This document shows positions 2,257 to 16,067 of a stretch of 24,000 nucleotides of DNA, in pieces (position 1 is the first letter of the stretch; the number at the start of each line of letters is the position of its first letter). The DNA lies in the NCBI RefSeq assembly GCF_003259225.1, contig NZ_QHJF01000015.1, forward strand, positions 69,826 to 93,825. The letters are read 5' to 3'. A program made the translations under genes and the position numbers. A model generated the notes under the pieces. It searched no databases. It saw nothing but the letters and a program-made list of their open reading frames with translations, and had not been told where the DNA came from. This stretch comes from Marinomonas arctica. GTDB lineage: Bacteria; Pseudomonadota; Gammaproteobacteria; Pseudomonadales; Marinomonadaceae.

Positions 2257-3030
2257 TTATGGCAGCAGCTTCACCACAATAAAACCAGTGAATAAAGCGA
2301 TGCTTACTGAAAATAGTGAGCCCAGCATGACGTATTCGGTGAATTTTCTATCGTGGGCTTCCCGTAGATCCCCCATGCGGAAAATGGATTTCGCGGCGAG
2401 TACAAAGCCGACTGCGGTGTATTGGCCGTTTAGTATAAAGGTCAGCACTAAGACGCGTTCAAGGTAGCCCAAATACTGGCCGGCATTCGGTAAGGATTGC
2501 GCTTTCTTGTTTTGTGAGTCGCACACATCGGCTTCCAAGTCCGCCGACCATTTAGATAAAATTTCACCGATGATAATAGACGCCGGTTTGAGCATCATCA
2601 GATACGCCAGAGTGACGAGGAGAGACGCGCTGTAATCTATGTCATTGATGAGCGTTTTGATTTGTTCTATCGCGGTATCAAAGAGATAAAACCATAAAAA
2701 TAGGATGCTTAGGACATGAAGTAACTGGTCGATAATAAACCACAAAAAGCCTTGTCCAACTTTTACTTTTGCATAATCGATTAGGCTATGAATAACGGCG
2801 AATAGTAAGCTGATAAAGAGCGAGCCTAACAAGCTGGTGGCGGTTGCGAAACTCACAATCACTAAGACAATGGCGCCATGAACCAGCCCATGATAATACA
2901 AAGCGCTCGAACGGCCTTGGTGCGTATTTTTGTCTTTCACCCATGAGTTTGGCTGTAAAAAGAAATCGCCAATCACATGTCCGAGTAACAACATAAGCAA
3001 CACAGGCAAACCATCGAGCTGAAACATCAC
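2257..3030 (-). CDS. DUF3307-family polytopic membrane protein (His/Asp-rich TM helices), second gene of the satD operon
   Basis: 257 aa with about 7 hydrophobic segments. The N-terminal LLGHVIGDFFLQP block and repeated H/D positions (HGLVHG, VIHSLIDY, IIDQLLH) match my memory of DUF3307. The start overlaps the satD stop (GTGATG: GTG 3030 or ATG 3027; TGA 3029-3027), and AAGGAG lies 6-9 nt upstream. Confidence 0.75.
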   Translation of the reverse strand: MMFQLDGLPVLLMLLLGHVIGDFFLQPNSWVKDKNTHQGRSSALYYHGLVHGAIVLVIVSFATATSLLGSLFISLLFAVIHSLIDYAKVKVGQGFLWFIIDQLLHVLSILFLWFYLFDTAIEQIKTLINDIDYSASLLVTLAYLMMLKPASIIIGEILSKWSADLEADVCDSQNKKAQSLPNAGQYLGYLERVLVLTFILNGQYTAVGFVLAAKSIFRMGDLREAHDRKFTEYVMLGSLFSVSIALFTGFIVVKLLP

Positions 3031-3692
3031 GACATACTCCTTATTAACGTGGTTGCTAATGCATCCAAGGTGTCTAGTATCAAACTGGCATTTGCCCGTT
3101 GCAAGCGTGAGGCTAACGAACGTCGATGAATCCCGGTCTTGGCCGACAGCGCGTCTTGCGTTAATTCAGGGTAGAGTAGGCGAGGAAATAAGACTTCAGC
3201 CTGTTTCTCACTGAGGCCCGTCATTATAAAATCTAGGTGACGAATCAATAAATCACGGCTGGGGTTGGCTTCAACGGTGTCTGGCAAAGACAGCTTAAGG
3301 CGTTCTTCATCCATGTCTTTCAAGGCTCGGCCAGACAGCTGAAAGGCTTCGCCTTTGGCGGTTTTTCTCAGCTCAGCCTCGATCTGTTTATACGAACCAA
3401 TGCCAACAGACACCCGAGCATCGGCGCCTTTTACACACTTCATCAGTGTGAGTCTTAATAAGATAGCGCAGCGCAGCGCGTGTTTTGGATTGGGTACAAA
3501 TACCTGAAACTCATCACCGCGGAACACATCGCCCTGGGCATGGAATTCATCTTGGAAAATGGCAATGGCTTGCTCAACCTGCTGTAAACAGGCTTGATGC
3601 TCAGCATCCGACAAAGCACTGGAATTGACAATGTCTCCAGTGACAACTCCGCCTGTATTCATATCATTAGCAACATCATTAAGAGACGCCAT
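3027..3692 (-). CDS. SatD-family protein: N-terminal nucleotidyl-cyclase/GGDEF-like palm motifs plus C-terminal HTH
   Basis: The ORF track starts at GTG 3713, but a perfect AAGGAGG (3707-3701) sits 8 nt upstream of ATG 3692, so I place the start there (221 aa). Motifs seen are VVTGDIVNSS, VFRGDEFQVFV and RVSVGIGS, followed by a sigma70-region-4/LuxR-like tail (LSEKQAEVLFPRL...TQDALSAKTGIHRRSLASRLQRA). The SatD name is from memory (PF16264), and SatD classically pairs with DUF3307. Confidence 0.7.
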   Translation of the reverse strand: MASLNDVANDMNTGGVVTGDIVNSSALSDAEHQACLQQVEQAIAIFQDEFHAQGDVFRGDEFQVFVPNPKHALRCAILLRLTLMKCVKGADARVSVGIGSYKQIEAELRKTAKGEAFQLSGRALKDMDEERLKLSLPDTVEANPSRDLLIRHLDFIMTGLSEKQAEVLFPRLLYPELTQDALSAKTGIHRRSLASRLQRANASLILDTLDALATTLIRSMS

Positions 3693-3754
3693 CGAATTAT
3701 CCTCCTTCACCACAAGCCCAACTTAACGGCTTTCATATGAGCTATCAAAGCATA

Positions 3755-3900: not shown

Positions 3901-6363
3901 ATGGAGTTGCAGCGGATAGGTGGCATGACCTCAGGTATTAATAAAGCAAAATTATCAGAAACCGACATCATCACGAAATTTATTCTGCCCGCTGTTAAAA
4001 ACGCTGGTTGGGATGATCGTACACAGATACGACAAGAGTTCCCAGTTACAGATGGTAAAGTGGTGGTGCGAGGTCAAGTGGCAGCACGGCAGAAGGCGAG
4101 AAGAGCCGATATTGCGCTCTTTTACAAAGACGGTATGCCGCTGGCGGTGATTGAAGCCAAGTCCAATCAATATTCTGTTGGTCATGGTATTCAACAATCC
4201 TTGGATTATGCCGAACGATTGGGTGTGCCTTTTGCTTTTGCTAGTAACGGTAATGGCTTTTTATTCCATGACAAAACCAATCTAAACCAAGTTGAAAGTG
4301 AGATAACGCTGGACGACTTCCCTAGTTGCGATCAGCTTTGGGTAAAATTCTGTGAATGGAAAGGCTATCGTAACGACCAGCTTCCCTTGTTGACGCAAAG
4401 TTACCACAGCGATGGTGAGGGCAAAGCGCCTCGTTATTACCAGATGCAGGCGATTAACCGCTCCATAGAAGCTGTAGCCAAAGGCCAAAATCGCTTGTTA
4501 TTAGTCATGGCAACAGGCACAGGTAAAACCTATACCGCCTTCCAAATTATTTGGCGTTTATGGAAAGCCAAGCAGAAAAAGCGCATCTTATTTTTAGCTG
4601 ACCGCAATGCCTTAATCGATCAAACTTTTATCAACGACTTTCAGCCGTTTGGTACGGCCATGACCAAAATCAAAGGCCATAAAATTGACCCAGCTTATGA
4701 AATTCACCTTGGTTTGTATCAGGGTATGACAGGCACGGAAGAGATACAAAAAGTCTATAAAAAAGTATCTCCTGATTTTTTTGATTTGATTGTGATTGAT
4801 GAATGCCACCGAGGCAGCGCGGCAGAAGATAGTAACTGGCGTGACATTCTCGACCACTTTAGTGGCGCGACACAAATTGGTTTAACAGCCACTCCGAAAG
4901 AAACCGAAGACGTATCGAATATCGAATACTTTGGCGAGCCGATTTATACCTATTCCCTTAAACAAGGTATTGAAGATGGCTTCCTTGCACCCTATAAAGT
5001 GATGCGTGTTGACATTGATGTGGATGTACAAGGCTGGCGACCAGAAAAAGGTAAGTTAGATAAAGATGGCAATTTGGTAGATGACCGCATCTACAACCAA
5101 AAAGACTTTGACCGTAACCTAATAATCGACGAGCGCACCCAGTTGGTGGCACAAACCGTGACCAACTACTTAAAACGCACCGACCCCATGGCGAAGACCA
5201 TCGTGTTTTGTAACAACATCGATCATGCCGAACGCATGCGCCGGGCTTTGATTAACCTTAATCCTGAACAGGTGGCGAAAAGCGACAAGTATGTGATGCG
5301 CATTACGGGCGATGAAAAAGAGGGCAAAGATCAGCTGAGTTATTTCACTAACAGAAAAGAATCTTATCCAGTGATTGCCACCACCTCGGAGCTGATGACC
5401 ACAGGTGTCGATGCCAAAACCTGTAAGTTGATCGTGCTCGATCAAGGCATACAATCTATGACCAAGTTCAAACAAATTATTGGTCGTGGTACACGTATTG
5501 ATCAGGAATACAATAAGCTTTGGTTCACCATATTGGACTTTAAAAAAGCCACGGAGCTGTTTGCTGATCCGCGCTTTGATGGTGATCCAGAGCAAGTTAA
5601 AGTCAGCACGCCAGCGGCCTTTGCTGATGATGCTCTTCTTGATGAAATGATTCACGAAGGGGAAGAGATCGACCTAAGCCAAGATGACAGCATAGACCCT
5701 GACAGCATTCAAGAGCCCCAAGGTGTCTACCAAAACGGTCATCGTGAAGATTACCAACTGGGTGATGCAGACTGGAATGATGATAAACCACGCAAATTTC
5801 ACGTGAACGGTGTGCAAGTAAAAGCCCTCGCCGAGCGGGTACAATATTATGATACCGACGGCAAACTGGTGACCGAATCTTTTAAAGACTACACCCGCAA
5901 AACCTTAGCGAAGCGTTTTGCTTCCCTGGATGAGTTTGTCAAAACGTGGCAAGCGGCAGAACGCAAACAAGCCATTATTGATGAGCTGGAAGAGTGCGGA
6001 GTGATTTGGGAATTACTCGAACAGGAAGTAGGAAAAGAATTAGATCCATTCGATATGATTTGCCATATCGTATATGATCAGCCGCCGCTGACTCGAAAAG
6101 AGCGCGCTAACCAAGTGAAAAAGCGTAACTACTTCACCCGCTATGATGGTGTGGCACAAGAAGTGCTCAGTCGTTTGCTCGATAAATACGCCGATGCCGG
6201 TGTGGCGGAAATAGAAAACATACAAGTACTTAAAGTCGCGCCGTTCGACCAGTTCGGGCGTATGCAGGAAATTATTAAAAAAGGCTTCGATGGCAAAAAA
6301 GAAACCTATTATGACGCGGTGAAAGCATTAGAAGACGAGCTTTATCAAGATCAAAGCGCATAA
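3901..6363 (+). CDS. hsdR: Type I restriction enzyme R subunit (EcoEI/EcoAI-like, with EcoEI_R_C-type C-terminal domain)
   Basis: 820 aa. The N-terminal nuclease region has [15 protein letters not shown] and D...EAK (ADIALF...AVIEAKS). SF2 helicase motifs are present: MATGTGKT (I), VIDECHRGS (II, DEAH-like), GLTATP (III) and QIIGRGTR (VI). AGGAAG lies 6 nt upstream of ATG 3901. Confidence 0.95.
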
Positions 6364-6381
6364 CACCACCCCCAATTCATA

Positions 6382-6420
6382 TTTCACTCAGGCCAAAGCC
6401 AGTATTTGGCTTGAGTGAAA
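6382..6420 (+). promoter_or_regulatory. Stem-loop between hsdR and hsdM that shares an 11-nt core with the satD/hsdR operator
   Basis: TTTCACTCAGGCCAAA GCCAGTA TTTGGCTTGAGTGAAA forms a 16-bp stem with one G.U position. It contains CCAAAGCCAGT, which is identical to 3764-3774. No U-tract follows, so it is more likely an operator or processing/attenuation element than a terminator. Confidence 0.45.
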
Positions 6421-6450
6421 TCATTTCGAACAAATGCAATAGAGAACATT

Positions 6451-7914
6451 ATGTCCATCACGACTGTCATCAAATCCATCCAAGACATTATGCGCAAAGA
6501 CGCTGGCGTAGACGGCGACGCCCAACGCCTTGGTCAAATGTCATGGTTGCTGTTTCTAAAGATTTTTGACGCCCAAGAAGAAGAGCTAGCCTTTGAACAG
6601 GATGATGCTTATCAAGCACCCATTCCAGAAAATTACCTATGGCGTAACTGGGCAACCAATCCCGAAGGCATTACTGGTGACGATCTGCTCGATTTCATCA
6701 ATGATGATCTGTTCCCCGACATGAAAAACCTTGATGCCACTCGTGATCGTAATCCTCGTGGTTTTGTGGTGAAAGAAGCCTTTAGTGATGCTTACAATTA
6801 CATGAAAAACGGCACCTTGCTGCGTCAGGTGATCAATAAACTCAACGAAATCGATTTTACCGATTCTCAAGAGCGTCATCTGTTTGGTGATATTTACGAG
6901 CAAATTCTGCGCGACTTGCAAAGTGCAGGCAATGCAGGGGAATTTTACACGCCTCGTGCCGTGACTCAGTTTATTGTCAACCGTCTCGATCCCAAACTAG
7001 GGGAAAGTATCATGGATCCTGCCGCAGGCACGGGCGGCTTTCTTGCTTGCAGTTTTGATCATGTAAAAGACCGTTATGTGCAGACCACGGAAGATCATCA
7101 AACCCTACAAAAGCAGATCCACGGCGTGGAAAAAAAGCAGCTGCCGCATTTATTGTGCATCACCAATATGATGTTGCATGGTATTGAAGTGCCCGTGCAA
7201 ATTCGTCATGGCAATACCCTGAACCAGCCGTTGGCAAATTGGGACAGTAATATTGATGTGATCGCCACCAATCCTCCGTTTGGCGGCACAGAAGAAGACG
7301 GCATTGAAAAGAACTTTCCCGCCGATATGCAAACCCGAGAAACCGCCGACTTGTTCTTGCAATTGATCATAGAAGTACTGACCAACCAAGGCCGAGCAGG
7401 GGTGGTATTGCCTGATGGCACCTTGTTTGGCGAAGGTGTGAAAACCAAGATCAAAAAAATGCTCACGGAAAAGTGCAACCTGCACACCATCGTGCGTTTA
7501 CCGAACGGCGTGTTTAACCCTTACACCGGCATTAAAACCAATATCCTGTTTTTCACCAAAGGCCAGCCGACAAAAGACGTGTGGTTCTATGAGCATCCGT
7601 ATCCAGAAGGTGTGAAAAACTACAACAAAACCAAGCCAATGAAGTTTGAAGAATTTCAAACCGAAATCGATTGGTGGGGCGACGAAGCGGATGGTTTTGC
7701 CAGCCGTGTGGAAACCAACCACGCGTGGAAAGTCTCTATCGACGAGATCATCGCGCGGAACTTTAACTTAGACATTAAAAACCCTTATCAAGAAGCGGTA
7801 GAAAGCCACGATCCAGAAGAGTTGCTGGCCACTTACCAAGCGCAGCAAGACGACATTGCTGCGTTGCGCAACCAGCTAAAAGACATACTCGGCGCGGCGC
7901 TGGCAGAAAAATAA
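6451..7914 (+). CDS. hsdM: Type I R-M N6-adenine DNA methyltransferase M subunit
   Basis: AdoMet motif I is DPAAGTGGFL and catalytic motif IV is NPPFGG. The N-terminal HsdM_N block is IQDIMRKDAGVDGDAQRLGQMSWLLFLKIFD. The track start (GTG 6415) lies inside the 6382-6420 hairpin. ATG 6451 (MSITTVIKS...) is the more plausible start and gives 487 aa. Confidence 0.93.
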   Translation: MSITTVIKSIQDIMRKDAGVDGDAQRLGQMSWLLFLKIFDAQEEELAFEQDDAYQAPIPENYLWRNWATNPEGITGDDLLDFINDDLFPDMKNLDATRDRNPRGFVVKEAFSDAYNYMKNGTLLRQVINKLNEIDFTDSQERHLFGDIYEQILRDLQSAGNAGEFYTPRAVTQFIVNRLDPKLGESIMDPAAGTGGFLACSFDHVKDRYVQTTEDHQTLQKQIHGVEKKQLPHLLCITNMMLHGIEVPVQIRHGNTLNQPLANWDSNIDVIATNPPFGGTEEDGIEKNFPADMQTRETADLFLQLIIEVLTNQGRAGVVLPDGTLFGEGVKTKIKKMLTEKCNLHTIVRLPNGVFNPYTGIKTNILFFTKGQPTKDVWFYEHPYPEGVKNYNKTKPMKFEEFQTEIDWWGDEADGFASRVETNHAWKVSIDEIIARNFNLDIKNPYQEAVESHDPEELLATYQAQQDDIAALRNQLKDILGAALAEK

Positions 7915-7938
7915 ACCAAGGATGGGAAGAAAAGCAGT

Positions 7939-9015
7939 ATGACAAATAGCATGCAAAAATCGCCCGAAAAGCAAATAACTCAAACGTCTGATTACCTGTT
8001 TAAGACATTACAAAGTGTGATTAAAGACGTTAAAAAGCAAGTCTCGACGCAAGTCAATTCAGCATTAACAATGATGTATTGGCATATCGGTAAGCAAATT
8101 TATAATGAGTTATTGCAGCAGCAACGGGCAGAATACGGGCAAGCTATTGTTAAGGCATTAAGTCGTAAACTGACCAATGAATTTGGTAAAGGGTTTAACT
8201 ACAGTGCGCTCACACGTATGCAAAAGTTTTATAGTGCTTTTCCAGAAGAGCCAATTGTTGCGACACTGTCGCAACAATTGAACTGGTCACACATTGTTTT
8301 ATTGTTGCCCATTAAAGACCCACTTGCACAACGATTTTACGCTCAAATGGCGGTCAACGACCATTGGAGTGTTCGCACCTTGCGTAACCGCATCGACTCT
8401 ATGTTATTTGAGCGCACTGCCTTGTCGAAGAAACCAGACGAACTCATTCAGCAAGAATTAGCACAATTGAAAAAACAGCAAATTACGCCTAACTTGTTAT
8501 TAAAAGATCCATATCTATTGGATTTTTTAGATCTGAAAGACCACTATCTTGAGAAAGACTTAGAAGACGGCATTTTAAGAGAATTAGAATGCTTTTTGTT
8601 AGAACTAGGCAGCGGTTTTAGTTTTATTGCCCGCCAGCATCGTGTGCAAATAGGCCAAGAAGACTTTTACATTGACCTGTTATTTTACAACCGTAAGCTC
8701 AAACGACTGGTTGCCCTTGATTTAAAACTGGGAAAATTCAAAGCCGCTTACAAAGGGCAAATGGAATTGTATTTGCGTTATCTGGCGAAATACGAACAAC
8801 AGCCCGACGAGCTAGCGCCACTGGGTATTATCTTATGCGCCAGTAAAGATCAAGAACAAGTAGAACTGCTCGAACTAGACCGTACCGATATTCATGTGGG
8901 TGAATACCTCACGGCGTTACCTTCCAAAGAACAGCTGCAAAATAAGTTACATCAGGTTATGGCGAGCCGACTTGATGCCGTCAGCGACGCAACAGATCTA
9001 GCCAAAGGCGAATGA
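7939..9015 (+). CDS. DUF1016 / YhcG-like PD-(D/E)xK nuclease-fold protein inserted between hsdM and hsdS
   Basis: 358 aa. The N-terminal YhcG-type helical domain has MYWHIGKQI, YGQAIVKALSRKL, LSWSHI-like QQLNWSHIVLLL and YAQMAVNDHWSVRTLRNRIDSMLFERT. The C-terminal nuclease core has EKDLEDGIL, FSFIARQHRV and DFYIDLLFYNRKLKRLVALDLKLGKF. Its stop overlaps the hsdS start (ATGA at 9012-9015). Confidence 0.9.
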   Translation: MTNSMQKSPEKQITQTSDYLFKTLQSVIKDVKKQVSTQVNSALTMMYWHIGKQIYNELLQQQRAEYGQAIVKALSRKLTNEFGKGFNYSALTRMQKFYSAFPEEPIVATLSQQLNWSHIVLLLPIKDPLAQRFYAQMAVNDHWSVRTLRNRIDSMLFERTALSKKPDELIQQELAQLKKQQITPNLLLKDPYLLDFLDLKDHYLEKDLEDGILRELECFLLELGSGFSFIARQHRVQIGQEDFYIDLLFYNRKLKRLVALDLKLGKFKAAYKGQMELYLRYLAKYEQQPDELAPLGIILCASKDQEQVELLELDRTDIHVGEYLTALPSKEQLQNKLHQVMASRLDAVSDATDLAKGE

Positions 9016-10793
9016 CCATGACTCAGCACAACCACATTAACCACCTGATAACCGACAACATGGACGTTTGGACCAGCGCTATCAAACGCAAATCCAGCTC
9101 GGGCCGAGGCTCAAGCAAAAAAATAGAACTGTACGGCATCAAGAAACTGCGCGAGCTGATTCTGGAGCTTGCCGTGCGTGGCAAGCTGGTTCCACAAGAC
9201 CCAAATGACGAACCTGCGTCTGCTTTGCTAGAACGCATCGCCGCCGAGAAAGCCGAACTGGTCAAACAAGGCAAAATCAAAAAGCCGAAAAAGCTGCCAG
9301 AGATTACCGAAGACGAAAAACCGTTTGAACTGCCGAAAGAGTGGGAGTGGGTGAAATTAGGAGATTTATCTAGTGATATTCATTATGGCTATACAGCGTC
9401 AGCGATGCCAAATTCTGAGGGTATTAGGCTTCTCAGGATTACAGATATTCAAGATGACAAGGTTAATTGGTCAACTGTTCCTGCATGTGAAGTAACGCCA
9501 GAAAAAGCAAAGGGCTACTTGCTTGAAAATAACGATATTTTGTTGGCGCGTACTGGAGGAACTATTGGTAAATCCTATCTTGTCGAGAATATTGATGTAA
9601 AGGCAGTCTTTGCGTCTTATTTAATTCGTGTTCGTAAGATTGAGTCGATGTATGCATCGTTTATAAAAGTTTATTTAGGGAGTCAGCTGTACTGGACGCA
9701 GCTTTATGCCAATTCTGCTGGGACGGGACAGCCTAATGTTAATGCTACAGCACTGAAGTCGTTACTTTTTCCAGTGCCACCTATTGAAGAACAACACTGC
9801 ATTGTCGCCAAAGTCGATGAGTTGATGGTGCTTTGCGATCAGCTAGAGGCGCAAACCGAATCCAGTCTTGATGCTCACCAAACCTTGGTGACAGCCTTGC
9901 TAGACACCTTAGTGAATAGCCAGAATCCTGAAGAGTTGACGGAAAACTGGATGCGCATCAGCGGCCACTTCGACACCTTATTCACCACAGAACAAAGCAT
10001 CGACCAGCTCAAACAAACCATCCTACAACTGGCTGTGATGGGCAAGCTTGTCGAGCAAAACCCCAACGATGAACCTGCCTCGGTTCTACTTGAACGCATC
10101 GCCGCTGAGAAAGATGACCTAATTAAACAAGGCAAAATCAAAAAACAAAAACCACTGCCACCGATTACCGAAGAAGAAAAACCGTTTGAGTTACCAGAAG
10201 GGTGGGAGTGGTGTCGATTTGGGGTTTTGTTTAAGTCATTTTCAAATGGTCTGTACAAACCTGCGAAATTTTATACAGATGCTGGTGTGATCTCTTTGAG
10301 AATGTATAACATCCAAAATGGATGTATTGATTTTAATGCAGCGAAAAGAGTCGAGGTTGAATCTAAAGAATTAGAGCAGTTTATATTAGAAGCTGGTGAT
10401 CTTTTGATTAATCGAGTTAATAGTAAAGAGCTTGTAGGTAAAACTGGAATAATTCCTAAAATGGAAGAGCCATTAGTGTATGAAAGTATGAATATGCGAG
10501 CTAAACCCTTTACAAATTATTTATCTTCTGAGTATTTGAATTTATTTATGATGACAAGGATGGCACAGAATTCTATTTCATTGTTTGCTAAAGAGGCAAT
10601 TGGGCAGGCATCAATAAACCAAGGGCAAGTGAGTTTAATTAAAACGCCTTTGCCGCCATTCGAAGAACAACACCGAATCGTCGCCAAGGTCGATGAGTTA
10701 ATGGCTATCTGCGACCAGCTGAAAACCCGACTCAGTGAAGTGCAAACCACGCAACTGAACCTTGCGGATGCGTTAGTCGAGCAAGCTTTGTAA
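9012..10793 (+). CDS. hsdS: Type I R-M specificity subunit (two TRDs, long duplicated conserved regions; size matches the EcoAI/EcoEI family IB)
   Basis: 593 aa. There are two variable, A+T-rich target-recognition domains (about 9360-9770 and 10215-10645). Each is preceded by an (E/Q)LAV.GKLV.Q.PNDEPAS.LLERIAAEK...KPFELP..WEW block and followed by P.PP.EEQH.IVAKVDELM..CDQL. Confidence 0.95.
   Translation: MTMTQHNHINHLITDNMDVWTSAIKRKSSSGRGSSKKIELYGIKKLRELILELAVRGKLVPQDPNDEPASALLERIAAEKAELVKQGKIKKPKKLPEITEDEKPFELPKEWEWVKLGDLSSDIHYGYTASAMPNSEGIRLLRITDIQDDKVNWSTVPACEVTPEKAKGYLLENNDILLARTGGTIGKSYLVENIDVKAVFASYLIRVRKIESMYASFIKVYLGSQLYWTQLYANSAGTGQPNVNATALKSLLFPVPPIEEQHCIVAKVDELMVLCDQLEAQTESSLDAHQTLVTALLDTLVNSQNPEELTENWMRISGHFDTLFTTEQSIDQLKQTILQLAVMGKLVEQNPNDEPASVLLERIAAEKDDLIKQGKIKKQKPLPPITEEEKPFELPEGWEWCRFGVLFKSFSNGLYKPAKFYTDAGVISLRMYNIQNGCIDFNAAKRVEVESKELEQFILEAGDLLINRVNSKELVGKTGIIPKMEEPLVYESMNMRAKPFTNYLSSEYLNLFMMTRMAQNSISLFAKEAIGQASINQGQVSLIKTPLPPFEEQHRIVAKVDELMAICDQLKTRLSEVQTTQLNLADALVEQAL
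9168..9350 (+). repeat. hsdS conserved-region direct repeat, copy A1
   Basis: Clearly similar at the DNA level to 10029-10212, sharing exact runs gaacgcatcgccgc, aaacaaggcaaaatcaaaaa, gattaccgaaga, gaaaaaccgtttga and gtgggagtgg. Confidence 0.85.
9771..9854 (+). repeat. hsdS distal conserved-region direct repeat, copy B1
   Basis: Encodes PVPPIEEQHCIVAKVDELMVLCDQLEAQ. Its DNA is similar to 10647-10730 (gaagaacaacac, atcgtcgcca / attgtcgcca, gtcgatgagtt). Confidence 0.8.
10029..10212 (+). repeat. hsdS conserved-region direct repeat, copy A2
   Basis: Partner of 9168-9350, about 860 bp downstream in the same frame. Confidence 0.85.
10647..10730 (+). repeat. hsdS distal conserved-region direct repeat, copy B2
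   Basis: Encodes PLPPFEEQHRIVAKVDELMAICDQLKTR. Partner of 9771-9854. Confidence 0.8.
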
Positions 10794-10808
10794 CCAAGGA
10801 GGGTGTCT

Positions 10809-11516
10809 ATGAGCGAACTTTATAATGTGTATTGTGATGAATCTTGCCACTTAGAAAACGATGGTATTAACGTGATGACGTTGGGGGCGCTTTGGTGTCC
10901 TGTGGCTAAGCGGGCTGACATTTCCAAACGGCTTCGAGAAATCAAGGTAAAACATGGGCTGTCAGCAGATTTTGAAATCAAATGGACTAAAGTAAGTAAA
11001 GGGCGGTTGGACTTTTATCTCGATGTCATTGATTACTTTTTTGATGACGATGATTGTCATTTTAGAGGTTTGGTCGTACCTGATAAAACAGTTCTTAATC
11101 ATCATAACTTTGGTCAAACTCATGATGATTGGTACTACAAAATGTACTTTGTTATGTTGAAAAGTATCTTTGACCCAGAATCAAAATATCGTGTCTACAT
11201 TGATATTAAAGACACATTGGGTCATGAAAAAATTACCAAGTTGCACGATGTCGTTTGCAATAGTCATTATGATTTTTCGCAACATATGATAGAAAAAATG
11301 CAGCGCATTCATTCTCATGAAGCGGAACAGCTTCAAGTGGCCGATCTGTTGATAGGTGCATTAGCCTATTTACATCGAGGGCTCACAACGAATCAAGCAA
11401 AGCTTGATTTAATATCAAGAATTAAAGAGCGTAGTGGTTATCAATTAACGCGCAATACTTTGATTAGAGAAAGTAAGTTTAATCTTTTAATTTGGAATGG
11501 ACAGGGAGATTCCTAG
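10809..11516 (+). CDS. DUF3800-family protein (uncharacterised; predicted nuclease-like fold)
   Basis: AGGAGG (10797-10802) lies 6 nt upstream of ATG 10809; the track start GTG 10803 is too close to the SD. The N-terminal VYCDES block and C-terminal QLQVADLLIGALAY block match the Y.DESG ... LQ.AD.L.G signature I associate with DUF3800 (PF12686). The gene starts only 15 nt after the hsdS stop. Confidence 0.75.
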   Translation: MSELYNVYCDESCHLENDGINVMTLGALWCPVAKRADISKRLREIKVKHGLSADFEIKWTKVSKGRLDFYLDVIDYFFDDDDCHFRGLVVPDKTVLNHHNFGQTHDDWYYKMYFVMLKSIFDPESKYRVYIDIKDTLGHEKITKLHDVVCNSHYDFSQHMIEKMQRIHSHEAEQLQVADLLIGALAYLHRGLTTNQAKLDLISRIKERSGYQLTRNTLIRESKFNLLIWNGQGDS

Positions 11517-11998
11517 TGACATCGGCATGGCTGCCAGATTTGGTGTTATTTAATGATTACGACGGAGATTGGAATCGTTATTTAAATGCTATCTATGCTT
11601 ATTTCGAAGCAGATTTTGTCTTATCAAAGCCGACCTTTCGTGGCGTTAGACTAGGGTTAAAGCGTTATCCTGAATACGATGGAAAGTCTGCGACTTTTTG
11701 GCATATGACCAGTACAGGGGATGATGAAAACGAGCGAACACCAGATTTTCGTCGTTGTGAGCGTATTCGTTGGCCAAAGCCAATTATTGAAAACGATCAA
11801 CATTTATCTTTAAAAATGTGGGCTGAACCTAAAGGTAAAAATAAGCGCATTCATATTTGGTATGAGCAAAAAGGATATTTAGTTGTGCTAGATGATAGAG
11901 GCGACTATATCTTGCCTTGGACTGCATTTTACGTTGAGCGTGAACATGAAAGACGAAAATACAATAAACGTTGGGAACGAAATAGAGATAATGTATAG
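11516..11998 (+). CDS. Hypothetical 160-aa protein with no recognised family; translationally coupled partner of the DUF3800 gene
   Basis: GTG 11516 overlaps the DUF3800 stop (TAGTG) and has GGGAGA 7 nt upstream. The alternative ATG 11492 (track, 168 aa) has no SD. The ORF has coding-like composition. The protein has a W/Y/R-rich core (FWHMTS, RRCERIRWPKPIIEN, YLVVLDDRGDYILPWTAFYV) and a basic tail (REHERRKYNKRWERNRDN). Confidence 0.6.
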   Translation: MTSAWLPDLVLFNDYDGDWNRYLNAIYAYFEADFVLSKPTFRGVRLGLKRYPEYDGKSATFWHMTSTGDDENERTPDFRRCERIRWPKPIIENDQHLSLKMWAEPKGKNKRIHIWYEQKGYLVVLDDRGDYILPWTAFYVEREHERRKYNKRWERNRDNV

Positions 11999-12017
11999 GA
12001 AGTAACTAAGAAAAGCT

Positions 12018-12039
12018 GACCTCGCCCTCTTGCGAGGAC
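12018..12039 (+). terminator. Weak GC hairpin after the hsd/DUF3800 operon (possible operon end)
   Basis: CCTCGC (12020-12025) pairs with GCGAGG (12032-12037) across a 6-nt loop, about 20 nt after the stop at 11998. There is no U-tract, so the call is weak. Confidence 0.25.
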
Positions 12040-12248
12040 GGTGTCGTAACTCCTTCTACACATGGTAGATGAGATGCATGAATATTAGCTACATGAGTCA
12101 ATATTTGCAAGTAATTCGTTTTAAGCATAGGGGAGCTGTATTTCTTCATGATTAATTTTATGCTTTATTAGCGAGATTTTACGCAGAAAGTACAATCGTG
12201 AGCAATTAGAGACTATTGTAGGTTTTACGGTAGTTAAGGAGATGCGAA

Positions 12249-12410
12249 ATGCTAATTCCTAAAAAAGAAAAAGTGAAATCGACGCCTTTTTCTGTTTTTT
12301 TTCGACATGCTAAGTCGGCAGAAAAACGCCAGTTTTTTGATCGGATCGCAAAAAAAGCGATTGAAGAGCAGCAACAGATGCTTGAAAAAGCTAAGAACAT
12401 GCCACAATAA
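12249..12410 (+). CDS. Small 53-aa basic/helical protein (below the ORF-track cutoff), stand-alone transcription unit
   Basis: AAGGAG (12236-12241) lies 7 nt upstream of ATG 12249. The translation is MLIPKKEKVKSTPFSVFFRHAKSAEKRQFFDRIAKKAIEEQQQMLEKAKNMPQ*, with TAA at 12408-12410. A clean intrinsic terminator follows 22 nt later. This ORF is a better explanation of the region than the antisense Cys-rich 64-aa track ORF at 12206-12400. Confidence 0.55.
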   Translation: MLIPKKEKVKSTPFSVFFRHAKSAEKRQFFDRIAKKAIEEQQQMLEKAKNMPQ

Positions 12411-12432
12411 ATGACTTTATTGTTTATACCAG

Positions 12433-12455
12433 AGCCGCTTGATAGCGGCTTTTTA
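12433..12455 (+). terminator. Rho-independent terminator of the 53-aa ORF
   Basis: AGCCGCT (12433-12439), loop TGAT, AGCGGCT (12444-12450), followed by TTTT. Confidence 0.65.
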
Positions 12456-12643
12456 GTCTGTAAAACCTGTAGTGCTAAAACTATTTGGTTCCACTTGGGC
12501 GCAGTGCTAATGGCTTAAAGGAATGGAAAGACAGTACTGGACGAGAGTTAGTAGCGGTAGAAGAGGTTGAGATAAAAGAGGCGTAAAGCAAAATCTAACT
12601 GTTAGCTTATCCGATAATATTGTTAAACGATGATTTTATGCTT

Positions 12644-12678
12644 AAAACGCCGTGAGCTATGAAGACGTGATCACGGCG
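12644..12678 (-). terminator. Probable intrinsic terminator of the darT-darT-darG operon
   Basis: On the minus strand, CGCCGTGA (rc of 12671-12678) pairs with TCACGGCG (rc of 12648-12655) across a 15-nt loop, followed by TTTT (12644-12647). It begins 14 nt after the darG stop. Confidence 0.5.
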
Positions 12679-12691
12679 CTTTAACTGTTGT

Positions 12692-13792
12692 TTACGCGTT
12701 TTGGATAAGTGGCTGATAGGTGTTTTTTAAACGATTTAAGGCAATGTTAATCGAGCGTTCATCAAATAAGTTTGTTTTGCGTTTTGCGCTTGCTTCTCCG
12801 GCGGGCCAGTGCTGAATGCCTTGAATGATTTTTTGTAGATCAGGTTCGATGTTTTCTTTGCTAACGAGCCAATCAATCGTAGACAGCAACTCCATACCAA
12901 AAGGCGTCTCAAAACCGTCTATCAGCTCTATTGTGTCTTGTAGAGACGTCAGATAGGGAGCCATTTCTGCACTTTTTAAGTAAGTATTTAGCTGATCCTG
13001 TTTTGAGTCCTCAAACCAAATTACGTCGAGTGGTTCCGCATCATTAATGCGTTTATTACAGTACAGATAAATTCCATCCAGATGGTCTATTAAGTGTCTG
13101 AGCCTGTCTGCGTATGGGCCATATAGGTTCGCTTCGAACCTAAGGTCTAGTGGGTTGTCGGTTTTATTCGATCCGTTGTGTTTTTCAATTGAGCGCTCTA
13201 AAAACCAAGCCAGCTTCTGAACTTCCAGCAAAGTACACTCCATCCCCATCACCCAGTATTGGCGAATTAATTCTGCAATCATGGCTCTAGCAGGGGTGAG
13301 TTTTGTGTGGCCTTTTTGTTTGGCAACATTTTGATAGCGCTGTGTTGGTTCGAAAACCAAAATATCGACAGATTCTAGGTCACCGAGAATGCGCTCAATT
13401 TCAGGTTTTACGCTTTCCCAGTTAAGCTTGCCATTACCCGCACCCAAAGCAGGAATCGCAATGGAGTTTAGATGATTATCAAGAATGACTTGTTTTAGAT
13501 CTACTAAGCCTTCCGTAATCCACTCTAATTTAGACGGATTGCGCCAATGGCGCTTAGTCGGGAAGTTAACAATCCATCTTGGTCCAACGAGTTCGCCCGT
13601 TTGGGTAACGAACATGCGACCTGTTTCTACTTGTTTTGCTTTACAAGCATTTGCATAATCTTGTGTATTTTTGGGAAAGCGTTCTTTAAACATGAGCGCG
13701 ATGCCTTTTCCCATTACACCAACGGTATTCACCGTATTAACGAGGGCATCGACATCCGCTTCGAGTAAGTTGCCTTGTGTGTAATGAATCAT
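12692..13792 (-). CDS. darG: DarG-like antitoxin: N-terminal macrodomain (DNA ADP-ribosyl glycohydrolase type) plus about 200-aa C-terminal domain
   Basis: Macrodomain blocks are [50 protein letters not shown] (TARG1/DarG-type Lys) and [16 protein letters not shown] 13792 overlaps the darT stop (CAATGA). The track start GTG 13804 is less likely. Confidence 0.88.
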
Positions 13793-14442
13793 TGAAAATA
13801 CCACTGTGTCATTTTTCGAACATCGATAGCTAGAGATTTTTCCTTCACTATTTGTTCAAGCTGTTGTTTCATTTCGTCTGAATAACAAACAATGCCCAGT
13901 AAACTGGTGATGGGGCAATGTTTATAAACCAAGGCTTCTGCTTGGTAGCGTTCGATTTGGGCCGGGTCGTCTTGGTTTCGTTGAAAGTTTCGTTGTTGAA
14001 TAATAGTCCAATCTAGTTTTATTAGCTCGTCTGAATTATCGAAAAATTCTGCAAACGCTGTGTAAGCATGACGGTCTGTGAAAACAAAAGGTACCTTTGA
14101 GTCTATTAGTTTTGGTATTGAAGAGACTAAGATGACAATTTCTTCATTGGCTCTTTGTTTAACGCCACCGCGACCTGTGTGTATGTTGTACATCATAGGA
14201 GAGAAAGGCGTGAAGTAGAAGGGAATATAATCACTCAGTGTGCCGTATGGCTTGATGGGAACATTGCGCTGAGTACGTTTGTGAATTAAGTCTGTATTGC
14301 CTATTGGTTCATAGTGCTCTGCGACCTTTTGTGAGCTGGCACAATGAAGGCCATTATCCAAAATCCAAGCAAGGTTATCTCTATGGACAATTCTCCATAT
14401 GAGTGCTTTTTCTGGGTTTAGGTTTGGATAATGATTAGTCAT
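13789..14442 (-). CDS. darT: DarT (DUF4433) DNA ADP-ribosyltransferase toxin, canonical thymidine-type (DarT2-like)
   Basis: 217 aa. Block-by-block resemblance to Thermus/Mycobacterium DarT as I recall it: [57 protein letters not shown] and [12 protein letters not shown] (ARTT Glu). It sits directly upstream of, and overlapping, a macrodomain gene. Confidence 0.88.
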
Positions 14443-15013
14443 GATGTTTTACAAACATATTCTCGTTTATTTGCGTGTTGACCGTGATGTTAACAGATTT
14501 CATTATTTGTTGAACTTGCTGATCTACCGTTTGGCTTTGGGTGAAAATTTTAAAAAATTGACTCGCTGGAATCGATTCTGGTGAAAGGCATTCTGCCATA
14601 CAAACGCTTTTACAATTTTTATCGCTGTAGTTTCTTTGATCCATTAGATCCCAGTTGATGTGCTCCATTCCTTGGTTGTAATTGAGTCTGGTCGTCTCTT
14701 CGTTTGCAAGTGGATGACGTGGAATAATTTGCCAATTATTAGCGCTGGCGTGATCTCGTCTTACTGCGATTAATATGAACGTTTTGTTCTTATAGGAGTG
14801 CTGAGCTGCTAAGTCAAAAGGGTTTTTGCTGAAAAAGTGAAAGGGTACATAGTCTTGAAGTTTTTGAGCTTGGCGTTTTGTAACAATATCGCTGTCTGCG
14901 ACGTCGGTAAAATCGGTCAGTTGGCTGCGTGGTAATAAGCCATGTTTAAGAATAGATTCAAGGTTTTCTAAGCTTGTTAGATGGTACAGCAGTCTTTGGT
15001 CTTTAATTGACAT
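14435..15013 (-). CDS. Second, divergent DarT-like (DUF4433-like) ADP-ribosyltransferase paralogue; first gene of the operon
   Basis: 192 aa. Blocks seen are LLYHLTSLENLESILKHGLL, QDYVPFHFFSKNPF, INWDLM and CMAECLSPESIP (a candidate catalytic Glu in the same relative position). AAGGA lies 7 nt upstream of ATG 15013. Its last codons overlap the darT start by 8 nt (ATGACTAA). Confidence 0.7.
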   Translation of the reverse strand: MSIKDQRLLYHLTSLENLESILKHGLLPRSQLTDFTDVADSDIVTKRQAQKLQDYVPFHFFSKNPFDLAAQHSYKNKTFILIAVRRDHASANNWQIIPRHPLANEETTRLNYNQGMEHINWDLMDQRNYSDKNCKSVCMAECLSPESIPASQFFKIFTQSQTVDQQVQQIMKSVNITVNTQINENMFVKHHD

Positions 15014-15046
15014 CGTGAAATCCTTTTTACTGAAGTTGTTTTGGTT

Positions 15047-15196: not shown

Positions 15197-15802
15197 CTAG
15201 AGCTCTTCTGTCTTAAATTCGCTGTAGCCTTCGTAGTAGTAACTCACGTCAATGCCTTTCATAAAGACCGAGCGGTCGTGAATTTTATCGGTTAAGGCTT
15301 GTTTGAGTAGTACTTTAATTTCAACGTCTTTGACGACGCTGCGCTGCATCGAAGAAAGGTATTCGTCTTTATCGACGGCGTTCCAGTCTATTACCTGTTT
15401 GATTTCTTTTTTGAATATAAGGTCAAGCCAGATGCGAGTGGCGCGACCATTGCCTTCGCGAAATGGGTGGGCGATGTTCATCTCTACATATTTTTCGACG
15501 ATCTCGTCGAAATTGCTCTGGGGCATGGCATCGATGTGTTTCAGCGATGGCTCTAAATACATGAGGGGAGCAAAGCGGAAGCCTCCTTTGGCAATGTTGA
15601 CCTCACGAATCTTGCCTGCAAAGTGGTAGATATCGTCAAACAAATAGGCGTGAATAAAGGCGAGACCTCTAAAGGTGCCAATCTCAACTTTTTCGATGTC
15701 ACTGGAGTCAAACAGCTGTTTCGCTTTTTGCTTACTGATTTTTTCCTCTGCTTTCGCGAGTTCTATTTGGTCAGTGATATTGAGTTTGTTTTCCAATAGC
15801 AT
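15197..15802 (-). CDS. fic: Fic-domain AMP-transferase, class III (C-terminal autoinhibitory helix), NmFic-like
   Basis: 201 aa. The Fic active-site motif is HPFREGNGRATR (HxFx(D/E)GNGRxxR). The C-terminal SYYYEG matches the (S/T)xxxE(G/N) inhibitory motif. No small antitoxin ORF lies upstream. Confidence 0.9.
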   Translation of the reverse strand: MLLENKLNITDQIELAKAEEKISKQKAKQLFDSSDIEKVEIGTFRGLAFIHAYLFDDIYHFAGKIREVNIAKGGFRFAPLMYLEPSLKHIDAMPQSNFDEIVEKYVEMNIAHPFREGNGRATRIWLDLIFKKEIKQVIDWNAVDKDEYLSSMQRSVVKDVEIKVLLKQALTDKIHDRSVFMKGIDVSYYYEGYSEFKTEEL

Positions 15803-16067
15803 GTTACATGCCCTCTGTTTTTACTATGTCTGCTTTTGAACAACGGCTTTTAGTGTTTTACATCGAATAGCTGAGAATGATCCTTTATTCTACCGTAAAG
15901 TGCTCTTAGGCTTCATTGCTATTTTGGGAAAAATTACTGTTTGGGTCCGGTAGCTTGTTGTTGGCTTTAGATGTGTTGAAATACGTTCTGGGTTACTGAT
16001 GTGCCCAATAAAAAAGAGAAGCCATTCGACTTTTCTTTTTTATTTCTGAAGTGTGATTTACGCAAGG

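Follow-up and report, generated by a model that had tools for sequence, protein, structure and literature searches.

The locus

We analyzed a stretch of 24,000 nucleotides from the genome of Marinomonas arctica (assembly GCF_003259225.1, contig NZ_QHJF01000015.1, positions 69,826 to 93,825 of the forward strand), hereinafter the window, which is a defence island and contains, on the minus strand, three overlapping genes related to the DarTG toxin-antitoxin systems (Table 1). In the order of transcription, these genes encode a DarT-family ADP-ribosyltransferase that we denote ART-A, a classical DarT2, that is, a thymidine ADP-ribosyltransferase acting on single-stranded DNA (ssDNA), and a DarG antitoxin. 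An earlier note, made from the sequence alone, had proposed that the three open reading frames (ORFs) form a single unit consisting of two DarT-family ADP-ribosyltransferases and one macrodomain DarG. This proposal is borne out by the profile matches and by the recurrence of the same arrangement in 69 of 80 genomes (see below), and the gene coordinates, the peptide motifs and the Shine-Dalgarno sequence on which it relied are all present.

Table 1. Features of the three-gene cassette and of the surrounding defence island (positions in the window)
Feature	Position	Strand	Assignment or evidence
ART-A, 192 amino acids (aa), first gene of the operon	14435..15013	-	DarT-family ADP-ribosyltransferase, 'P2-prophage / WP_016239482' clade
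Classical DarT2, 217 aa	13789..14442	-	ssDNA thymidine ADP-ribosyltransferase of the EPEC/Thermus type; profile and homology
DarG antitoxin, 366 aa from ATG	12692..13792	-	N-terminal macrodomain and C-terminal DarT-binding-type domain
Shine-Dalgarno sequence AAGGA, 7 nt before the ART-A ATG (15013)	15021..15025	-	sequence inspection
Stem-loop 3' of the DarG stop codon, 14-bp stem	12642..12684	-	RNA fold
Extent of the conserved three-gene cassette	12670..15046	.	blastn against Marinomonas spartinae
hsdR	3901-6363	+	type I restriction-modification (R-M) operon (3901-10793)
hsdM	6415-7914	+	type I R-M operon
DUF1016/YhcG PD-(D/E)XK nuclease gene	7939-9015	+	inserted between hsdM and hsdS
hsdS	9012-10793	+	type I R-M operon
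PDC-M04A (DUF3800, 3.5e-97) and PDC-M04B (1.2e-74)	10803-11998	+	PADLOC candidate two-gene defence system
Fic protein adenylyltransferase	15197-15802	-	NmFic equivalog, 309 bits; PADLOC PDC-S04; just upstream of the cassette
SatD-like protein	3027-3713	-	25.9 bits, below the Pfam cut-off of 29
DUF3307 protein	2257-3030	-	overlaps the SatD-like gene; island edge

The three genes are tightly interlocked. The TAA stop codon of ART-A and the ATG of DarT2 both lie inside ATGACTAA, with an 8-nt overlap at 14442-14435, and the stop codon of DarT2 overlaps the start codon of DarG in a 4-nt ATGA (13792-13789); the ORF listing also offers an alternative upstream GTG start for DarG at 13804. The hairpin that the earlier note placed downstream of DarG is real, with a free energy of -19.3 kcal/mol (z = -3.55; 0 of 200 shuffled sequences were equally stable), whereas the accompanying T-run is limited to four U and the consensus terminator scan missed the structure; it is probably a weak intrinsic terminator. 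A consensus promoter scan revealed no sigma-70-like promoter upstream of 15013, and only 33 nt ahead of the ART-A start codon belong to the block conserved in Marinomonas spartinae. As previously noted, no NADAR domain is encoded among the ORFs of at least 100 aa in the window. The Rfam and tRNA scans of the window came out empty.

ART-A represents a distinct clade of the DarT family

The product of the first gene matches the Pfam DarT profile PF14487 (DUF4433) over its full length (E-value 9.9e-30; 104.2 bits, cut-off 22.5; profile positions 1-200 of 201) and the PADLOC DarT profile with an E-value of 7e-42. The identity between ART-A and the middle DarT2 is only about 20%, so these genes are not recent duplicates, and in the phylogenetic tree, they belong to two deep clades each of which includes independent two-gene systems; accordingly, a tandem duplication of the toxins is ruled out. 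Nor is ART-A an odd, degenerate paralog. The clade to which it belongs consists of conserved proteins of about 190 aa, with 436 members in a database clustered at 90% identity and, in an exhaustive search, 69 clusters at 50% identity (E <= 1e-30), which share the motifs YHLT, VPFHFF, (R/K)HPL and CMAECLS.

An AlphaFold2 model of ART-A (24 homologues) attained a pLDDT of 89.5 and a pTM of 0.87, and all top Foldseek matches of this model are DarT structures, the nearest being DarT2 bound to ssDNA. The TM-scores are 0.80-0.83 to Thermus DarT2 (0.83 to 7omv), 0.75 to Mycobacterium tuberculosis DarT and 0.61 to DarT1, the last value being clearly worse than those for DarT2; thus, the fold anticipated in the earlier note is recovered and is DarT2-like.

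The residues of ART-A were mapped onto those of Thermus DarT2 by phmmer and by profile-profile alignment (98.5% probability). His13 that binds the NAD ribose, the catalytic Arg51 and Glu160 of the ADP-ribosylating turn-turn loop in the Thermus enzyme (PMC9967889) correspond to H11, R47 and E141 of ART-A, respectively, whereas T15 and N19 correspond to T13 and N17. The counterpart of H119, which contacts thymine in Thermus DarT2 and in place of which the guanine-specific DarT1 employs Asn104 (PMC11543638), is H100 (R99-H100 in the profile-profile alignment). Two positions differ: Tyr71, which stacks the nicotinamide, and Met78, which stabilizes the oxocarbenium (PMC9967889), are replaced in ART-A by H59 and F66, respectively, and the eight-residue loop that follows the catalytic arginine in Thermus DarT2 is missing. 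Among 76 family members, H11, N17, R47, H59, F66 and H100 are invariant, and E141, the catalytic glutamate that the earlier note had already recognized, is found in 75.

The ratio of nonsynonymous to synonymous substitution rates (Ka/Ks) for ART-A is 0.107 in the comparison with the M. spartinae ortholog, with a median of 0.083 over 58 pairs, which is also the value obtained for the middle DarT. Given the residue mapping, the invariance of these residues and the low Ka/Ks, ART-A looks like a working thymine-type enzyme with a modified nicotinamide pocket rather than a decayed copy or a DarT1. A decayed pseudo-enzyme, or a simple degenerate duplicate, is ruled out because ART-A retains the NAD-binding residues and evolves under purifying selection, and a DarT1-like guanine enzyme is ruled out because the sequence match to DarT1 is limited to the N-terminus (E = 0.39), the TM-score is low, the base-contacting residue is histidine rather than asparagine and the window contains no NADAR gene.

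The middle toxin and the antitoxin

The middle protein is a classical member of the family. It matches the Pfam DarT profile over its full length (1.2e-56), the PADLOC DarT profile (7e-71), the NCBIfam toxin_DarT equivalog (254.2 bits, above the cut-off of 150) and Thermus DarT 7omv (2.3e-30), and is 58% identical, over the full length, to an Escherichia coli DarT encoded between hsdS and hsdR. The DarG partner of this E. coli toxin, WP_000634203.1, has the accession of the DarG of the characterized DarTG2 system of enteropathogenic E. coli (EPEC) E2348/69 (PMC12255303), and the DarG encoded in the window is 61% identical to it, again over the full length. The third ORF further matches the NCBIfam antitoxin_DarG equivalog (440.7 bits, cut-off 250; positions 1-338 of 338) and the PADLOC DarG profile (8.5e-125), and combines a TARG1-like macrodomain with a C-terminal DarT-binding-type domain, as is characteristic of DarG; the catalytic K80 is located within the FPTK motif, which is invariant in 71 homologues. 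This protein is the cognate antitoxin of the middle toxin.

By contrast with this full-length relationship, the similarity between the DarG of the window and the macrodomain proteins that are cognate to ART-A relatives is confined to the macrodomain (42-47% identity over ~150 aa). In HHalign comparisons of the C-terminal domains, the C-type, found in the DarG of the window, is linked to the E-type at 96.4%, and the D-type, found in the ART-A partners, is linked to the E-type at 97.4%; all these domains comprise one very divergent superfamily. The DarG proteins of the three-gene locus of Enterobacter and the two-gene E. coli/EPEC system are 92% identical; DarG is not remodeled where ART-A is present and, accordingly, requires no special adaptation. 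The macrodomain of DarG alone suffices as an antitoxin, and the K80A mutant fails to rescue (Jankevicius et al., PMC5179494), so it is plausible that one DarG serves two toxins. DarG-type macrodomains also reverse uracil ADP-ribosylation on RNA (PMC13036486).

Recurrence of the three-gene order

A survey with one genome per species yielded 134 genomes that encode a relative of ART-A, and the counts given here come from the best 80. Co-directional genes for ART-A, DarT2 and DarG were found in 69 of these 80 genomes (at least 69 species), and two more such loci are cut by contig ends. The hosts are Gamma- and Betaproteobacteria, including Pseudomonas, Enterobacterales, Vibrionales, Alteromonadales, Burkholderiales and Neisseriales. 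Three of the remaining loci consist of ART-A and its own macrodomain protein (in Nostocales), three have ART-A convergent to a DarTG of the Vibrio cholerae type (in Vibrio, Shewanella and Psychromonas), and three are other variants. In 66 of 70 loci, ART-A and DarT2 are separated by -8 to +2 nt, with 4-nt overlaps in 36 of these, so that this junction is as tight as that between DarT2 and DarG.

The three genes also diversified together: Mantel tests of ART-A against DarT2 and against DarG gave r = 0.79 (p = 0.001), whereas DarT2 and DarG are linked more tightly (r = 0.93). ART-A evolves faster than its partners, with a mean pairwise identity of 54% compared with 67-69%. In the comparison with M. 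spartinae, the cassette is the sole long region of nucleotide homology (88% identity) whereas the flanks differ; the cassette moves as a unit. A conserved fourth gene is ruled out because the upstream neighbors are variable (Mrr, HsdM, S24 peptidases, integrases and housekeeping genes); the Fic gene that lies upstream of the cassette in the window (15197-15802) is likewise ruled out as a member of the operon, being absent from the equivalent place in M. spartinae.

The classical pair also occurs without ART-A. Among 5,426 complete E. coli genomes, 249 carry a two-gene EPEC-type DarTG, none of them with ART-A; the DNA of the E. coli DarT-DarG pair is 86% identical to the three-gene locus of Enterobacter, and in the tree, the two-gene E. 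coli DarT nests among three-gene sequences. Among plasmids, 72 records encode a classical-type DarT and four encode ART-A, with no overlap between the two sets. In a metagenome scan centered on DarT2, which detected more than 561 relatives, we scored the 71 best loci in which the upstream DNA was long enough: ART-A is located upstream of the EPEC-type DarTG in 15 of these (21%), and the other 56 are plain two-gene loci. ART-A is, then, an accessory to the classical DarT2-DarG pair, and the three-gene arrangement is a widespread minority variant.

The ART-A clade outside the cassette

Relatives of ART-A are found in two-gene systems of their own. In hotspots of P2-like prophages of E. coli, a 193-aa DarT is encoded together with a 323-aa macrodomain protein, between the gpA/DinI and the portal/terminase genes. 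Similar two-gene pairs are present in Morganella, Serratia and Klebsiella aerogenes, in Nostocales and on Cytobacillus plasmids, as well as on 16 of 19 viral or prophage contigs. In the fully sequenced loci examined, the partner of ART-A is a macrodomain protein wherever it can be identified. By this token, proteins of the ART-A clade appear to be toxins in their own right.

Some relatives have other surroundings. On two prophage contigs from IMG/VR (L086 and L087), ART-A is co-directional with genes for a divergent DarT (209 aa) and a DarG (342 aa), and in the three loci where it is convergent to a DarTG of the V. cholerae type (L013, L015 and L036, from Vibrio tapetis, Shewanella and Psychromonas, respectively), the DarT is 201 aa long. 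ART-A thus is found beside several DarTG lineages, so that its link is to a DarG of some kind, not to a particular type. The ORF table of the V. cholerae element itself contains a single DUF4433 gene. In addition, ART-A-like domains are located at the C-terminal ends of three large proteins, P0339 (952 aa; residues 765-923), P0351 (1274 aa; residues 1084-1257) and P0368 (644 aa), an architecture that resembles polymorphic toxins.

Comparison with known systems

The middle gene and DarG are homologous to the DarTG systems of Thermus and M. tuberculosis and to DarTG2 of EPEC E2348/69 (DarT WP_000312835.1, DarG WP_000634203.1), which is located in the RRDM island, inside a type I R-M operon. The locus in the window shares with the EPEC-type system the toxin-antitoxin gene order, the ATGA overlap, the macrodomain with Lys80 and a position within a defence island, adjacent to type I R-M genes. 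The differences are that DarTG2 of EPEC is a two-gene system located inside the hsd operon whereas the cassette in the window carries an extra DarT of another clade at the front and lies beside the hsd operon; of the other genes of the EPEC island, neither RptR nor M48 was seen in the window. With three genes and two DarTs, the locus departs from the canonical two-gene DarTG2.

The DarT system of the E. coli P2-like prophages has clade motifs in common with ART-A and likewise includes a macrodomain protein. That system, however, consists of two genes, with its own short D-type macrodomain antitoxin, whereas ART-A in the window comes without a dedicated antitoxin and shares the DarG of another toxin. 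The resemblance to DarTG1 (E. coli C7 DarT1 with the NADAR-containing DarG1, specific for guanine) extends to the DarT fold, the catalytic arginine and glutamate and the toxin-antitoxin logic of phage defence, but without NADAR and with His in place of the guanine-reading Asn104, the locus is not a DarTG1. DarHTG (PMC13069673, NAR 2026) is a three-gene variant as well, which shows that DarTG systems gain accessory genes; there, a UvrD-like helicase is the extra component and an ARH-type DarG3 serves as the antitoxin, in contrast to the second DarT and the standard macrodomain DarG in the window. Among the solved structures, the best sequence match of ART-A is the DarT-macrodomain fusion of Thermosipho africanus (7OMU; E = 0.001, TM-score 0.73); it is a distant one (~21% identity), to a single fused polypeptide that has Tyr and Met where ART-A has His59 and Phe66.

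Interpretation and alternatives

The reading that we prefer, with a probability of about 0.6, is that the locus is a dual-toxin, three-gene variant of the macrodomain-type DarTG (DarTG2), that is, a toxin-antitoxin and abortive infection system. Both toxins would be active thymine-type ADP-ribosyltransferases targeting ssDNA, and the single DarG would restrain both, mainly through the removal of ADP-ribose by the macrodomain, a reversal that would not require toxin-specific binding; the C-terminal domain of DarG may additionally sequester the cognate DarT2 and, possibly, ART-A. Upon phage infection, both toxins presumably would escape control and modify the replicating DNA, and two toxins with only about 20% identity might attack a wider range of DNA motifs. 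It is relevant in this context that the EPEC-type system and the one studied by LeRoux et al. are both anti-phage systems, and that phages counter DarT with toxin-specific binding proteins, AdfA and AdfB. Of the two alternatives that the earlier note had weighed, a "dual warhead" is the better one, without the DarT1-like guanine specificity that had been considered for ART-A, which has His instead of Asn and is closer to DarT2.

Several observations weigh against the dual-toxin reading. ART-A falls below the cut-off of the NCBIfam toxin_DarT equivalog NF048013 (76.1 bits, cut-off 150), and the replacement of Tyr71 with His and of Met78 with Phe, together with the eight missing residues, suggests that its activity or its target could differ. 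ART-A is dispensable, given that about 79% of the close EPEC-type DarTG loci lack it. Furthermore, it is truncated or broken in three or four of the 15 metagenomic loci (L153, L170, L180 and L173; some of these breaks may be assembly errors) and split in three of the 80 genomic loci (L048, L054 and L058), where DarT2 and DarG are intact; such breakage fits a toxin the loss of which is harmless. The C-type C-terminal domain of the DarG in the window shows no direct similarity to the D-type domain of the ART-A partners (HHalign, 0.7%), so that this DarG may or may not bind and physically neutralize ART-A. Neither for this ART-A nor for any three-gene system did we find biochemical or genetic tests in the literature. 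The potential robustness of a two-toxin system to phage anti-DarT proteins, each of which binds one DarT, is speculation.

The DarT of the E. coli P2-like prophages, WP_016239482.1, which is 45% identical to ART-A over the full length (E = 3e-60), heads the DarT dataset of a study of V. cholerae DarTG (mBio 2024), next to WP_032219799.1, the C7 DarT1, which matches 8BAQ and has its catalytic glutamate at E152; the methods of that study state that the published DarTs of LeRoux 2022 were added to the dataset. From this listing and this statement, we infer that LeRoux et al. 2022 very probably studied WP_016239482.1 as their anti-phage "DarT2". If this identification holds, the name "DarT2" would cover two lineages with about 20% identity.

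The most serious of the alternatives, which we nevertheless consider unlikely, is that ART-A is active on another substrate, be it an alternative motif in ssDNA, deoxyuridine, uracil in RNA, some other base or a protein, so that the two toxins have distinct, non-redundant activities. The presence together, in at least 69 species, of two clades with about 20% identity argues against simple redundancy, and the altered nicotinamide-stacking residue, the phenylalanine in place of methionine and the shorter loop after the catalytic arginine are compatible with such a difference, as is the ability of DarG-type macrodomains to act on uracil-linked ADP-ribose; moreover, in the literature that we checked, DarT2 biochemistry comes exclusively from enzymes of the classical lineage. 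Nevertheless, the base-contacting histidine and the catalytic arginine and glutamate match those of the thymine-specific DarT2, the fold is nearest to the ssDNA-bound DarT2, and the partner is always a macrodomain protein, with NADAR absent. A different thymine motif would be a sub-case of the dual-toxin explanation rather than a true rival.

Distinctly less probable is the other alternative raised in the earlier note, namely, that ART-A is a non-toxic accessory protein, such as a phage sensor, a regulator or a decoy that absorbs anti-DarT inhibitors. Its invariable upstream position, with translational coupling, and the lack of an ART-A-cognate type of DarG C-terminal domain in the operon could be explained in this manner, as could its faster evolution and its dispensability in many lineages, and DarHTG provides a precedent for a third gene. 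A decoy or a sensor, however, would not need the catalytic and NAD-binding residues that are invariant across 76 homologues, Ka/Ks (~0.08) equals that of the bona fide toxin, and its close relatives are independent toxins, each paired with a dedicated antitoxin. That ART-A has no function, being an orphan of a decayed DarTG or a chance hitchhiker beside one, is very improbable and largely refuted by conservation: defence islands do collect fragments, and ART-A is disrupted in a few cases and also lies convergent to other DarTG types, but 66 of 70 loci from Gamma- and Betaproteobacteria retain the gene order and the overlapping junctions, ART-A diversifies together with DarT2 and DarG under strong purifying selection, and the cassette moves as a unit.

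It is possible, although less likely than not, that "DarT2" consists of two enzyme families with different targets or motifs, ART-A acting, for example, on another ssDNA motif, on deoxyuridine or on RNA uracil. The cassette then would be a two-specificity weapon in which one promiscuous macrodomain keeps both modifications reversible, and the pairing would have been selected because inhibitors of the AdfA/AdfB type block one toxin at a time.

The surrounding defence island

On the low-coordinate side of the cassette lies a type I R-M operon with a nuclease gene inserted between hsdM and hsdS (Table 1); in EPEC, such an operon harbors DarTG itself. The PDC-M04 pair follows directly 3' of hsdS and is convergent to the DarT cassette. 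The approximately 700 nt between the convergent ends of PDC-M04B and DarG (11999-12691) contain no convincing gene, only small ORFs of 51-64 aa; this region has no Rfam match, and one small ORF that was tested gave no Pfam hit. On the opposite side of the cassette, the Fic gene is an insertion or deletion difference from M. spartinae, with positions 15884-15968 of the window matching 4781-4867 of locus L001. The stretch from 10.5 to 15 kb is slightly poorer in GC.

Implications

In the literature surveyed, DarTG is described as a two-gene system with two subfamilies, DarTG1 and DarTG2, that are defined by the antitoxin. We found no description of two DarTs with one DarG in this literature, and an earlier depiction in a figure or a supplement is possible. 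Jankevicius et al. 2016 cite a DUF4433-macrodomain operon of Pseudomonas mendocina that was validated as a toxin-antitoxin system by Sberro 2013 (PMC5179494); because many three-gene loci are found in Pseudomonas, this system might be a three-gene one as well. The single DarT profile of PADLOC matched both toxin genes in the window, and a tool that expects one DarT per system presumably would fail to single out the second gene as a toxin lineage in its own right.

DarT2 is under development as a genome-editing effector. A second, shorter lineage with a different make-up of the active site may, for this reason, be of practical interest.

More generally, the macrodomain-linked subfamily of DarTG harbors two toxin lineages with about 20% identity, and many bacteria keep both under one antitoxin. 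The cassette thus constitutes a natural experiment that bears on the share of DarG antitoxin function that comes from enzymatic reversal as opposed to toxin binding, on whether the two lineages differ in the DNA motif or the substrate that they modify, and on whether doubling of the toxin defeats phage-encoded DarT inhibitors.

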